DNA from: Phormidesmis sp.
Lineage (GTDB): Bacteria > Cyanobacteriota > Cyanobacteriia > Leptolyngbyales > Leptolyngbyaceae
DNA: 64,000 nt
Assembly (NCBI GenBank): GCA_965248535.1
Contig: CBDFJR010000005.1
Span: 896,001 to 960,000, forward strand
Direction of reading: 5' to 3'
The notes under the pieces were generated by a model. It was not told where the DNA came from. It did not search any database and was given only the letters and a program-made list of their open reading frames with translations. Below, in pieces: positions 34,839-42,773 of the stretch. The stretch's first letter is position 1; every line of letters starts with the position of its first letter. A program made the position numbers and the translations under genes.

Positions 34839-34926
34839 ACATAACGACCCCGTTCACCCGCCGCTAGGAACCTTTTGGACTCACCGACTCACTTGATACG
34901 GTCGGTGTGCAACGGGATTGTCATTC
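34839..34926 (-). other. attC-like site A (one core degenerate, GTCATTC)
   Basis: ACATAAC..CCCGTTCACC..GGTGTGCAACGGG..GTCATTC; arms nearly identical to site E. Confidence 0.8.
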
Positions 34927-34933
34927 GATGCTT

Positions 34934-35236
34934 CTACTCAATTTTGGATTGTCTCCAGTGCTTCATCTCCTCATCAGTAAAGTGACTAACTAAATCCCGA
35001 TACATTTTTTCAATTGCATCTGCATTTAATCCTTCCTCTTCTGCCCAGACTCGACGCTGCCCTAACATTGCGTGAAAGCGTTCAGGTGCTTTAACGGTAG
35101 TTTCACTCGTCTTGAATTTAGAGGCAGCTTTGACATATGCGAAACGCTGACCAAGTAGAGCAACAACTTGACGATCTAACCGATCAATTTCGGCTCGAAT
35201 ATCCGCCATATTTCCACATTGATTAGGTGTCTTCAT
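34934..35236 (-). CDS. pchB: Isochorismate pyruvate-lyase / chorismate mutase type II (cassette gene)
   Basis: MKTPNQC..MADIRAEIDRLDR...AASKFK..APER. Confidence 0.8.
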   Translation of the reverse strand: MKTPNQCGNMADIRAEIDRLDRQVVALLGQRFAYVKAASKFKTSETTVKAPERFHAMLGQRRVWAEEEGLNADAIEKMYRDLVSHFTDEEMKHWRQSKIE

Positions 35237-35364
35237 AGTTTGCAAAGTTGAGTGATGAGGCTAGTTTTCAACTTGAATCGAGAGTTCACACAACACTGGA
35301 AAATTCACCTGTGTTTTGAAGACTACCCCAACCCGCAAACTTCGCCTTCATGAAGTTCGGGGCA

Positions 35365-35697
35365 TTATGATAAAGCAAGCAGCGATAAACTTTCATCTGC
35401 ATGAAATAATTTGATCGCTTCAAAACTCTGACGTATAAAATTCTCAACTTGCCATGTTGAACAGTTTCCCAAGCGAAGCCAAATAACTTTTGGTGGATTG
35501 CCAAATACTAAGCTCAAATCGTGCATATCCGCCTCTTTTGAGACAATCATCAAATCGTTGTCTTTTGCATAATTCCAAACGATTGGATCGATTGTTGCCT
35601 TCATTCCCACATCTCGAACCTGAAGCGAATTTAGGAAAAGATCGTCCAGACGGTTCGGTAACTTTGGCGACAAGTTTTCATCAAAAAGTAATCTTAT
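35365..35697 (-). pseudogene. DUF5615 PIN-like toxin with start codon mutated to ATA
   Basis: (I)RLLFDENLSP...GNPPKVIWLRLGN. Confidence 0.75.
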
Positions 35698-35924
35698 GCA
35701 GATAATGGAGGAATCATTAACCGACGCTCACGGGCAGCAGCATAAGCAATACAGGCTTTTAAGTCTTCCCGCGTCAGATCGGGAAAATCGTCAAGAATTT
35801 CTGCTTCAGTCATCTCGGAAGCTAGGTGCTAGAGTACCTCATAAACCGTAATTCTTAAACCACGTACACAAGGTTTCCCACCCCGTTTATCAGATTCAAT
35901 TGTGATAAAGTTTTGGTAGCTCAT
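35694..35924 (-). pseudogene. DUF433 antitoxin with premature TAG
   Basis: MSYQNFITIESDKRGGKPCVRGLRITVYEVL*HLASEMTEAEILDDFPDL; stop at 35829-31. Confidence 0.85.
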
Positions 35925-36029
35925 AGTTAAAATCACCTTCATTAAATAGCTCTATTATAAGGCTTCGTCAGTCACAATCAGCACCAACAGAGGCTTTTTA
36001 GACTACTGCCCCAACCAACAGCCTGAGCC

Positions 36030-36115
36030 GCTGAACGTTCCGGTTGAGCGGTGACAAACCGAACTGGAACGAAGTGCAAAAGCTTTACTCATCCGCTCCA
36101 ACCGGATTGTTAGCT
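36030..36115 (-). other. attC-like site C
   Basis: GCTGAAC..CCGGTTGAGCGG..CCGCTCCAACCGG..GTTAGCT. Confidence 0.85.
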
Positions 36116-36330
36116 GTCTGACGCTGAGCAATCCGCATTAACAGGCGCAATGCTTCGTTTACAGCTTCTTCGTTAGGAAATGCTTTGGCAACATCAGGAT
36201 CTAGAAGGACAAGATTAGTTCCTGCTCGATAACGCTCTACATATTTCCCCCTAATTCCTCCCGCTAATTGGGAAAAGTCGTACTCAGGTCGTAATTCGTC
36301 GTCCATCTCATTGTCAATCTCCTTCCTCAT
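36085..36330 (-). CDS. BrnA-like antitoxin
   Basis: [29 protein letters not shown]. Confidence 0.8.
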
Positions 36331-40249: not shown

Positions 40250-40456
40250 GATTCAAGCCTATTGATAGAATGAGATGCCTTAGAAGCTGCTGAGATAAGA
40301 GTTATAAAATCAAGACTCAACCTCACTCTGCTGTATAGAACAGGAGATAAAATGAATCAGCTTATTAACATAAGCTCTGCAATTTAGGAAATGATTGCTC
40401 TCTAGGAGTAACTGAATCAAAGTAGAATTACTACCTTGGAAACCTTGTAATACCAA

Positions 40457-41005
40457 TCACCAGTCCTTCCTTGGAAACTCAAGATCATGTGTTGCATGGC
40501 TTGGATCTTTGTCTAGATATCTTTGTTGTTTTATTCGTAAGTCATTTTCCCTAGATGGCTCATCAGTCCTCAATTGACTATCCTCTCCACTTTTAGAGTT
40601 TCCCCCTCCCATGTTTCTAAGCATAAAAATCAAGCCTGAGGACAGGAAAGAGAACGGCTGCTTCAGAAAAGTTTTAACTATTGCTCCAAGAATATTAGCT
40701 GGAGATGGTTCAATGTTTTCATAAATTAGGCTTTGCCTTATGAAATAGACAACAAACACAATAGCAGCTAGTAGCCCAATCCAATGCCAATTAGCCCATG
40801 CCTGGATAATCAGAAAGATATAGAAAATCCAACGTGTTTTGTCGCTAAATGAGCTTAATACCCAGAGACCAATAACAAAAAATGCAGCGACAACATTACC
40901 GTGTGGAGCAAAGGCGTTATAAATTACGCTGTACACAACTAATGCGACAGCAGCGCCAATATGCAGGTTTCTTCGTATGATTTTCATGATTAGGTAGGTA
41001 AACAA
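40457..41005 (-). CDS. Hypothetical membrane protein (cassette)
   Basis: Several transmembrane-like segments; AT-rich DNA. Confidence 0.6.
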   Translation of the reverse strand: MFTYLIMKIIRRNLHIGAAVALVVYSVIYNAFAPHGNVVAAFFVIGLWVLSSFSDKTRWIFYIFLIIQAWANWHWIGLLAAIVFVVYFIRQSLIYENIEPSPANILGAIVKTFLKQPFSFLSSGLIFMLRNMGGGNSKSGEDSQLRTDEPSRENDLRIKQQRYLDKDPSHATHDLEFPRKDW

Positions 41006-41190
41006 ACGCTAGTTTGACTGGTATCAAGAAAAAATTATTCGGCTTGATTCTGATGTCACGGAACCGATAGCAGGTGTGTTCTTCAATACAAAGTTCCTCA
41101 ATTTTCATCTAGCTGTCTGAGCATCTATGAGATTGAGTTTGGGCAGCGACAGATAAGCATCAATAACTGCCCCCACCGATAACTTAAGAC

Positions 41191-41275
41191 GCATAACGGT
41201 TGCAATCACCGGACTCAGATATCTTCTGCTAGCACCAGTATGCTTCAAAGTTCCGGTGCATTGCGATGGTTAGCT
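41191..41275 (-). other. attC-like site F
   Basis: GCATAAC..GCAATCACCGGA..TCCGGTGCATTGC..GTTAGCT. Confidence 0.9.
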
Positions 41276-41282
41276 TTCGCTT

Positions 41283-42599
41283 TCACAGGTACGGTTTAAG
41301 CTGCTTAAATATTTCATTGGTTTCATATCCGGGTAGTTCATGAATACGGCTCTTTAATATCTCAGATTGGTACTTTGTTGGTGTTGTAAAGCTCCGATTG
41401 TAATTAGAAATCCATCTTTTTACTTCCATATCCACTCTTTGAACAAGTTCAGCTGAATTAGGCGAATTTATTAACCAGAGAAGAAACATTACTTGATCCC
41501 ATTTATCCCGAACTCTATTGAGAGAAAAAGCACATGATTTCATCACAGGATTAGAATCAACAGAACACAAATCTATTAACTCTGGTTCGCTCAATCTCAT
41601 TCTAGCTTGCCGCATTAACCTTGCTGACTCCTTAGCTACACCTGGAGAAGTATCTCGTATCCCAATAGTAAGATATTGTTCAGATTTCTCTCTGTCTAGT
41701 CTAACTAATGCTTGTAGGCTGGCTTTTCGCAGACAAGAGTATTCACTTTTTAGATACTCTGATATAGCACTTATTGCCGCAATACAATTAATTTCAGACA
41801 ACCCTAACAATGCACTTCTCAATTGTCTTAACTTACTTTGCTTCGCAGATAGCTTTTGCAAATACAGACTCTGAACATCAACACTTATTTCAACTAATTT
41901 CTTGACAGCAATTTCTCTGATCGAAGCGTGACGGTCAAATGCAAATAATTCAAGAAGATTTTTAGAAGTGTCTGAAAATCGATTCAAAGACAATAATAAG
42001 GTTGTACGTCGGACGGGCATAAATGGATCTTGAAGACCAAATTTCATGACTTCTTTCAGTTGATCATCCGCAAGCAAATTAAACAAATTAGCTATAGTAG
42101 AGCGAACTACAATGTCATGACTGCCTATGCAGTGGAGTACGATTTGGTATGGCTGCAACAGCTGATGATCGATGGTTAAGTGCAGGCAACAACGCGCCAC
42201 AAGGGGATTAGCACTTGTGCACCCATCTACAACTTTCGCTTTATTCTCTCCACTAAGTAGAAACGATTCAACGGCTGTGATTAGCTCGCTATGATCGTCT
42301 CTATAACAATTCTCAAGATGATAAATATTGGGCAGCGCATCGATAAACGCCAATGCGTTTTCTTCGATTAACAATTCTTTAAGTGCTGTATATGAAGCAG
42401 ATCTTACCTGTGGAACCCAATCATTTGCCCGTTTAATGAGTATAGGAAGTGTGATCGAAGTGCCAACCAGCCCCAATTGACGAACTGCCTTTTCTCGTTC
42501 ATAGCCGTTCCAACTATCTGCCAGTTTCAGAAGCTCATCGATACTCTTCTGCTTGTAGAACCATTGATGCCACTTTTTCAAAAGCCCTCCTCGACCCAC
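41283..42599 (-). CDS. HEAT-repeat protein (first cassette)
   Basis: NGYEREKAVRQL..RANDWVPQVR and further HEAT-like repeats. Confidence 0.75.
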   Translation of the reverse strand: MGRGGLLKKWHQWFYKQKSIDELLKLADSWNGYEREKAVRQLGLVGTSITLPILIKRANDWVPQVRSASYTALKELLIEENALAFIDALPNIYHLENCYRDDHSELITAVESFLLSGENKAKVVDGCTSANPLVARCCLHLTIDHQLLQPYQIVLHCIGSHDIVVRSTIANLFNLLADDQLKEVMKFGLQDPFMPVRRTTLLLSLNRFSDTSKNLLELFAFDRHASIREIAVKKLVEISVDVQSLYLQKLSAKQSKLRQLRSALLGLSEINCIAAISAISEYLKSEYSCLRKASLQALVRLDREKSEQYLTIGIRDTSPGVAKESARLMRQARMRLSEPELIDLCSVDSNPVMKSCAFSLNRVRDKWDQVMFLLWLINSPNSAELVQRVDMEVKRWISNYNRSFTTPTKYQSEILKSRIHELPGYETNEIFKQLKPYL

Positions 42600-42611
42600 T
42601 GATGTTGAGAA

Positions 42612-42773
42612 AGCTAACTACTATTTCTGCCGTTTGAACTCCTATCAAACAGGATAAATGCCTCTCTCAGGGAAATTATGCTGTATGCAAACCGGATAAC
42701 GCCCATTATTTTAGGAATTATACTGAATTTCCACAGGATAACTCTCCGATTTCGGGTAATTATACGGAATGGC
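42612..42773 (-). other. Candidate attI-like site with three 42-bp-periodic repeats
   Basis: Core AGCTAAC at 42612; GGATAA at 42652, 42694, 42736; ATTAT at 42675, 42717, 42759. Confidence 0.55.

Follow-up and report, generated by a model that had tools for sequence, protein, structure and literature searches.

Integrons are bacterial gene-capture systems. Their attC sites also occur in the form that Cury et al. 2016 (PMC4889954) named the cluster of attC sites lacking integron-integrase (CALIN); in the available text of that paper, CALINs are described as common and their origin and activity as debated, integrons are reported in Cyanobacteria, and CALIN cassettes are proposed to be mobilised by integrases encoded elsewhere. 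An attC covariance model specific to Cyanobacteria has also been published (Ghaly et al. 2021, PMC8352920). Here we describe a five-cassette array at positions 34839-42617 of a 64,000-nt stretch, hereafter the window, of the filamentous cyanobacterium Phormidesmis sp. (GCA_965248535.1, contig CBDFJR010000005.1:896,001-960,000, forward strand). The window sits on contig C5 (C5:896001-960000) of a 5.03-Mb genome (G000). Very probably, these cassettes form a chromosomal integron array that has no integrase of its own, a CALIN with minus-strand genes, to which integrases would come in trans from two complete integrons on contig C2.

The array is punctuated by five imperfect palindromes of 85-88 nt in a single orientation, which run from RYYYAAC to GTTRRRY on the plus strand (Table 1). 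An earlier note on this stretch had placed them at 34839, 36030, 36955, 38944 and 41191, each at the 3' end of a gene and the first ending in GTC, and the sequence bears this out: the stop codons of minus-strand genes at 34934, 36085, 37747, 39038 and 41283 lie 0-8 nt from the sites. The left end is AAC in all five and the right end GTT in four, attC1 being the site with GTC. Genome-wide, AAC is kept in 31 of 35 sites and GTT in 26, with another five cut by an intron. A covariance model built from the window's five sites (R1) scores them at 61-91 bits on the plus strand and matches three of them on the minus strand at only 17-18 bits. A second model (R2), built only from the four uninterrupted attC sites of the two intI-bearing integrons and run over the whole window with filters off, finds exactly these five (E 8e-14 to 2e-6; next match outside at E 0.72), with opposite-strand scores of only 15-25 bits at four of them. 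The kinship with sites beside integron integrases upholds the attC architecture claimed in the earlier note. Its CALIN label holds as well: the class asks for at least two attC sites under a 4-kb rule with no intI near, and the window has five, separated by at most about 2.2 kb. A further R1 match at 46395-46484 (18.6 bits, E 0.007) is not recovered by R2 and was taken as chance.

With E up to 1 as the limit, R1 has 49 matches across the 5.03-Mb genome, of which about 37 fall below 1e-3; these matches are clustered, and two clusters adjoin integron integrases. Over 40 distinct aligned sites or strand readings of the genome, 86.5% of cells pair, compared with 70.4% in shuffles and 28-44% with a slid partner. 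Compensatory changes occur in 13 of 20 pairs, and none of 500 shuffles reached the observed score. Because the model strand beside the intI genes opposes cassette transcription, the plus strand of the window corresponds to the bottom strand, in agreement with the earlier note. By analogy with integrons, each site on the single-stranded plus strand would fold into a hairpin in which AAC is paired with GTT, two stems are present and a single C is flipped out of the 3' arm; this hairpin would be bound by an integron integrase and cut between A and C of AAC, and the cassette would be excised as a circle or inserted at the array head. The unaided minimum-free-energy folds of attC1-3 on the plus strand are not the canonical hairpin; the consensus fold and the covariance models do give it.

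The flipped-out base is uniform. In all 35 main-strand sites of the genome, a C stands unpaired between the two stems on the 3' arm of the plus strand, which extends to the whole genome what the earlier note had seen in five sites; ten of the 35 have two further unpaired bases beside it, and 34 have a G directly after AAC, as is usual (PMC2727003, in the text available). The usual base at this attC position is G, as that note had stated, with C in the attC sites of dfrA1 and blaVIM-2 (Larouche and Roy 2011, PMC3053210). According to the accessible portions of two papers (PMC3053210, PMC2727003), a G-to-C change at the extrahelical base has little effect or raises excision, and sites with C work when assayed with other integrases. 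The window's sites resemble those of dfrA1 and blaVIM-2 in their bottom-strand unpaired C and in the distance of about 6-7 nt that separates it from the unpaired position by the R box. Unlike the mobile-integron sites of PMC3053210, among which C is presented as a rare exception, these sites have it as the rule in one genome. The unpaired C is a known, tolerated variant and here a genome-wide rule. Its uniformity is a natural counterpart to mutagenesis data in which C is tolerated or even favoured.

The PF00589 search gave five tyrosine recombinase matches in the genome and, as the earlier note had stated for the window, none in C5:896001-960000, where TIGR02249 has no match either. The genome search for IntI that the note had suggested found two intact genes on contig C2, at 468 and 466 bits (TIGR02249 cut-off, 265 bits); in 14 control genomes, TIGR02249 matches are present and never above the cut-off. 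IntI-1 and IntI-2 are 68% identical, and residues 12-320 of IntI-2 align to VchIntIA (PDB 2A3V; E 9e-93), ungapped across the integron-specific insert and the catalytic motifs. The intI-2 gene lies on the minus strand, with adjoining model matches on the minus strand and cassette open reading frames (ORFs) on the plus strand, and the intI-1 locus is its mirror image. Judged from sequence, both loci have the canonical divergent integron layout. A 198-bp block that is 97% identical between the two loci and contains a 121-nt attC-like site precedes both genes (C2:1132760-1132960 and C2:161000-161200), and in integron 2 about 3.5 tandem repeats of about 37 bp separate this block from the intI start. 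In another genus (G066), a 94%-identical copy of the block again precedes intI, and copies without intI are present at C5:797633-797753 of this genome and in another genome of the genus (G007). Because the window holds no recombinase but another contig holds two intact IntI genes, the array is possibly served in trans; the earlier suggestion to this effect gains from these genes and from differences at predicted crossovers, and we still infer it.

A sample of 61 genomes from the taxonomic family includes 33 with an IntI above the cut-off, and 21 of 27 genera have a match at E up to 1e-40. R2 gives 6-48 matches at E up to 1e-3 in each of the eight genomes of the genus.

Cassettes 1-4 differ in context or presence between genomes, with ends at the predicted crossovers; for cassette 5, no support of this kind was obtained. 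In public run X3, which by its code is from another organism, one contig links 41193 to 42615 at depth 3.4 with a shorter side of 29 nt, skipping 1421 nt that are exactly cassette 1 (41197-42617). Contigs of run X4 cover 38948-39136 and 39129-41197 at about 99% identity (25 differences over the latter) and diverge from the window beyond both ends; because they diverge at 38948 and 41197, cassette 2 (38950-41196) is framed. The same run has a backward joint from 38930 to 36034, at a depth of 2 that is too low for any interpretation. A copy of cassette 3 in G007 matches window positions 37734-38952 at 85% identity, without the intron described below, and stands first in another array, beside the 121-nt site and a copy of module B of the array head. 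A copy of cassette 4 in another genus (G008), 75% identical, ends at window position 36961 beside an attC match. As far as sequence comparison goes, these differences are compatible with site-specific exchange and fall short of proof. No empty site can be defined for the whole array, because the relatives have the mutL flank and the right flank on separate contigs. Nothing about habitat or absence follows from the parts of the window left uncovered in runs X3-X5 or from the small-share runs X4-X13.

The earlier note had the array run from 34839 to 42773; its start stands, whereas the array stops at 42617 and positions 42618-42773 belong to a leader, module A. The genome has nine copies of this module, all of which begin at RYYYAA/C (the slash marking the crossover), are preceded by unrelated cassette DNA and have a same-strand attC at 0.3-2.6 kb. 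Four promoter-like sites, consensus matches only, lie on its minus strand and read into the array. A cassette of about 280 bp, X, adjoins module A at two loci, joined at the same crossover, and at a third locus adjoins the attC-like site upstream of intI-2. From the anatomy of these junctions, module A is a candidate attI-like docking site, a leader at the head of the array whose edge would be the point of cassette entry. As at an attI site, variable cassettes join at the edge of module A, at G/TT of the top strand, and its promoter-like sites face the array; the joint of run X3 falls at this edge too; unlike the attI of integron platforms, it has no adjoining intI, and the genome's two real platforms use the 121-nt attC-like element in the 198-bp block. 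Two other identities for module A were rejected. As a giant attC, its single-stranded DNA fold has a z-score of +0.52, with 140 of 200 shuffles folding at least as well; as an intI remnant, 42561-43200 has no tblastn match to IntI-2 at E 10, and blastn against both platforms matched module B only.

Module B follows the leader and encodes an orphan protein of 123 amino acids (Table 1). It occurs in 17 copies in the genome, 82-95% identical in DNA, with the frame intact in 16 (other copies are, for example, at C2:1130863-1131571 and C5:2447296-2448013). Twelve of the 17 have a same-strand attC no more than 6 kb away, compared with a mean of 0.24 and a maximum of 3 in 2000 random placements. Immediately 3' of intI-2 stands one of the copies, and the module also lies 3' of intI in two further genomes (G002 and G003). 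Another copy, at C5:1265797-1266469, starts right after the 3' end of an apparent tRNA gene and has no attC near it. The protein has no Pfam match at E 0.01 and no NCBIfam match at E 0.1, uninformative Atlas feature matches of at most 0.77, and a predicted local distance difference test (pLDDT) score of 37, too low to be of use, in an AlphaFold model from a 20-sequence alignment. Its 406 close public homologues are all unnamed, its closest named relatives are from Phormidesmis, and an exhaustive search of 1.84 billion proteins returned 13 representatives at the 50% clustering level, all of them short relatives.

The site that the earlier note had placed at 36955, attC3, stands and is interrupted, as a 700-nt group II intron separates it from most of its right core. 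This intron accounts for the sole Rfam matches in a scan of the window (group-II-D1D4-3 at 37148-37314, 127.8 bits, and D1D4-1 at 37425-37520, 63.7 bits, both on the plus strand) and contains no reading frame. Of its nine copies in the genome, six including the window's are identical, and the others are 98.6%, 85% and, in a partial copy, 79% identical. Eight stand after TTGT at the 3' end of the attC bottom-strand hairpin, with T following, and one stands after TTGC. The sole related intron that bears a reverse transcriptase (C2:1673018 onward) has this gene, at C2:1673616-1674712, split into two overlapping frames. Many copies at 84-89% identity are present in another genus of the family (G010). 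Because G007 carries an uninterrupted attC3 site and cassette, contiguous across 37034/37735, the borders of the intron are fixed. A contig of run X1 likewise joins 37033/37734 and skips the intron, at depth 131 (28-45 in neighbouring unique parts) and with a shorter side of 27 nt; this joint reflects either an intron-free variant in the sample or spliced RNA.

Group IIC-attC introns, as the available parts of PMC7923331 and PMC3001079 describe them, target TTGT/T in the R'' core of the folded attC bottom strand, lie antisense to the cassettes and occur also in CALINs; ORF-less group II introns of bacteria are given in the accessible text of PMC4424553 as rare and found mostly beside relatives that bear an intron-encoded protein. 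The intron in attC3 is like S.ma.I2 and its relatives in its TTGT/T insertion in the R'' core of the bottom strand, its antisense orientation and its CALIN setting. Unlike them, the window copy has no reading frame and is part of a burst of six identical copies; the likeness to the clade is one of insertion site. Since the intron puts the right core 700 nt from its partner, we infer that this ORF-less, attC-targeting element currently disables attC3.

The array comprises 12 ORFs or pseudogenes (eleven had been counted at first), every one on the minus strand as already noted. Profile matches support the cargo that had been read from the sequence, namely toxin-antitoxin pairs, a GNAT acetyltransferase, PchB and unknowns; the cargo is mostly unknown or toxin-antitoxin genes, with no resistance genes in the array. 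The earlier description as AT-richer and poor in HIP1 is borne out by a GC content of 43.5% and a HIP1 density of 0.13 per kb, one octamer in the whole 7.9 kb, compared with about 50% GC and 0.86-1.13 HIP1 per kb in the flanks and 1.02 per kb in the genome. In the spacer at 35245-35365, between the isochorismate lyase and DUF5615 genes, a short hairpin follows CCCCAAC; neither covariance model matches it, and it may be the remnant of an attC that once divided two cassettes. At its distal end, the array is separated from mutL (32151-33839) by a stretch that contains a LysR fragment and the tail of a DDE_3 transposase, which suggests a past rearrangement there.

Table 1. Array, array head, intron and neighbouring features; positions refer to the window unless a contig is named, R1 and R2 are covariance-model scores, and a slash within a motif marks the crossover or insertion point.
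Feature	Position	Strand	Remarks
attC1	34839-34926	+	left core ACATAAC, right core GTCATTC (GTC replaces GTT); R1 87.3 bits; R2 44.6 bits, E 9e-10; last site of array
attC2	36030-36115	+	overlaps stop codon of 81-aa gene; R1 80 bits; R2 59.6 bits, E 8e-14
attC3	36955-37034 + 37735-37739	+	split by intron; R1 61 bits; R2 32.5 bits
attC3, 5' part	36955-37034	+	left core, both stems and GT of right core; final 5 nt at 37735-37739
attC4	38944-39031	+	R1 90.6 bits; R2 53.4 bits
attC5	41191-41275	+	R1 82.6 bits; R2 56.7 bits
Cassette 5	34845-36035	-	1191 bp; boundaries inferred from AA/C crossovers of attC1 and attC2
Isochorismate lyase / chorismate mutase II gene (PchB-like)	34934-35245	-	cassette 5; NF005475, 152 bits (cut-off 126)
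DUF5615 PIN-like toxin	35365-35673	-	cassette 5
DUF433 antitoxin, split in two (pseudogene)	35694-35813 + 35829-35942	-	cassette 5
Cassette 4	36036-36960	-	925 bp
81-aa protein in BrnA position, no family match	36085-36330	-	cassette 4; overlaps BrnT gene
BrnT toxin	36314-36613	-	cassette 4
80-aa unknown	36641-36883	-	cassette 4
Cassette 3	36961-38949	-	1989 bp; 1289 bp without intron
PIN toxin	37747-38130	-	cassette 3
Phd-like antitoxin	38127-38366	-	cassette 3
GNAT acetyltransferase	38375-38854	-	cassette 3
Cassette 2	38950-41196	-	2247 bp
403-aa protein, N-terminal hydrophobic stretch, weak CHAP match	39038-40249	-	cassette 2
182-aa membrane-like protein	40457-41005	-	cassette 2
Cassette 1	41197-42617	-	1421 bp
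HEAT-repeat protein, 438 aa	41283-42599	-	cassette 1
Module A, leader (about 300 bp)	42618-42915		starts exactly at crossover AGCTAA/C (42617/42618)
Module B	42916-43620	+	promoter-like box, hairpin, 123-aa gene, terminal hairpin; read away from array, as intI would be
Orphan 123-aa gene	43194-43565	+	in module B; hairpin at start codon 43152-43197
ORF-less group II intron	37035-37734	+	700 nt; in bottom strand at TTGT/T of right core; antisense to cassettes
Intron copies and relatives elsewhere in genome (1)	C5:44914-45613, C5:793639-794338, C2:156856-157555, C2:1133221-1133920
Intron copies and relatives elsewhere in genome (2)	C2:1136164-1136863, C2:609290-609979, C5:1939398-1940095, C2:1673018 onward
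DDE_3 transposase fragment	34552-34749	+	E 0.008; only profile end covered
LysR substrate-domain fragment	33867-34184		E 1.2e-7; only profile end covered

A position at gene 3' ends is also that of terminators, and the palindromes could be read as ordinary intergenic hairpins, terminators or repetitive extragenic palindromic (REP)-like repeats, unrelated to integrons. Their AAC...GTT cores, invariant one-sided bulge and strand-specific scores argue otherwise, as does the attC-specific intron class that targets them; no T run follows them on inspection of the sequence, and the same type of site flanks cassettes beside two integron integrases. Because R2, derived from intI-adjacent sites, finds those of the window, this reading is refuted and retains virtually no probability. 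A more serious alternative is an inert relic, an array built by a past integron and now fixed DNA, on which the IntI enzymes encoded elsewhere are inactive and whose leader is a conserved flank copied with array heads. Several signs of decay point this way and weigh against a working array served in trans: the right core of attC1 is GTC, an intron splits attC3, the DUF433 antitoxin gene is broken, and four of the five cassettes hold two or three ORFs, which suggests lost internal attC sites; transposase and LysR fragments lie at the distal end. To these are added that none of the nine copies of module A has an intI beside it, that none of the 30 family intI loci examined, out of 59, contains the module, and that the leader lacks a hairpin fold. 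Further points on the same side concern the evidence for exchange: the comparative joints are single low-depth contigs with shorter sides under 30 nt, compared at 90% likeness, which a repeat of another organism could mimic; the match of G006 to cassette 5 covers 35085-35986 only and ends off the crossovers, giving no boundary support; recombination products were not seen directly; and single-stranded DNA folding, a check named in the earlier note, does favour the sites over mononucleotide shuffles, yet only modestly (z -1.4 to -3.4). On the other hand, both IntI genes are intact and full length, the four intact attC sites score on par with intI-adjacent sites, and related DNA shows cassettes 1-4 in a different setting or lacks one, the ends falling at crossovers. 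All six identical copies of the intron stand in attC sites, so that single-stranded attC hairpins were presumably available recently. We consider an inert relic unlikely, and the array may still recombine at present.

The array head raises another alternative, in which some other machinery operates the arrays that have leader A and gene B at their head. The 123-amino-acid protein might then be, for instance, a site-specific DNA-binding or recombination factor, and IntI would not act at the leader. The gene is intact in 16 of its 17 copies, evidently under purifying selection, belongs to no known family, with so few representatives in the protein database searched, and stands at array heads in 12 copies with one fixed geometry, far above the random mean; the same geometry was seen in relatives compared by eye. 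However, the gene also follows intact intI in this genome and in G002 and G003, so that it travels with classical platforms, and five of the 17 copies have no attC nearby. Its product is small, with no recognisable catalytic domain, and the leader junctions are the canonical RYYYAA/C of IntI crossovers. A separate machinery is accordingly a very unlikely account, and a CALIN served in trans by the two integrases of contig C2 is the reading that we retain.

Beyond the window, we tentatively raise the possibility, which we would not yet favour, that in this genus the integron is a distributed system in which one or two integrases serve many integrase-less docking platforms spread along the chromosome, each with the conserved 123-amino-acid gene, read away from the array, and either module A as a double-stranded attI-like leader or the 121-nt attC-like site. 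The window array would then be a satellite platform and not a broken integron, and the 123-amino-acid protein an undescribed accessory factor. The parts of the searched literature that were available held no description of a conserved leader common to many integrase-less arrays, of the 123-amino-acid gene, or of an ORF-less burst of an attC-targeting intron. If the leader works as a docking site, these cyanobacteria would capture cassettes away from intI as well, and some arrays regarded as 'orphan' would be functional platforms. With two intact integrases, about ten integrase-less arrays that have one uniform attC type, a conserved array head and an attC-specific intron in mid-burst, the genome is a natural test bed of uncommon completeness for the debated origin and activity of CALINs.

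Compared with described systems, the array itself is of a kind already known. As in the CALINs of PMC4889954, in the text available, its five attC sites lie no more than 2.25 kb apart with no intI near, complete integrons are present in the same genome, and the cargo is made up mostly of unknown and toxin-antitoxin genes, without resistance genes. Like the attC sites of cyanobacterial chromosomal integrons, treated in the accessible portions of Ghaly et al. 2021 (PMC8352920), its sites belong to the same phylum and are conserved in sequence and structure within the taxon. The description 'little-studied' given in the earlier note is in this respect only partly right: cyanobacterial integrons and the CALIN class (PMC4889954) are in print, as is the cyanobacterial attC model (PMC8352920). 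The element is a good but fairly ordinary example, and its interest, which is moderate, lies less in the array than in the system that surrounds it across the genome. Unlike a CALIN as set out in the available text of PMC4889954, this array has at its head a conserved leader that is common to eight other arrays of the genome.

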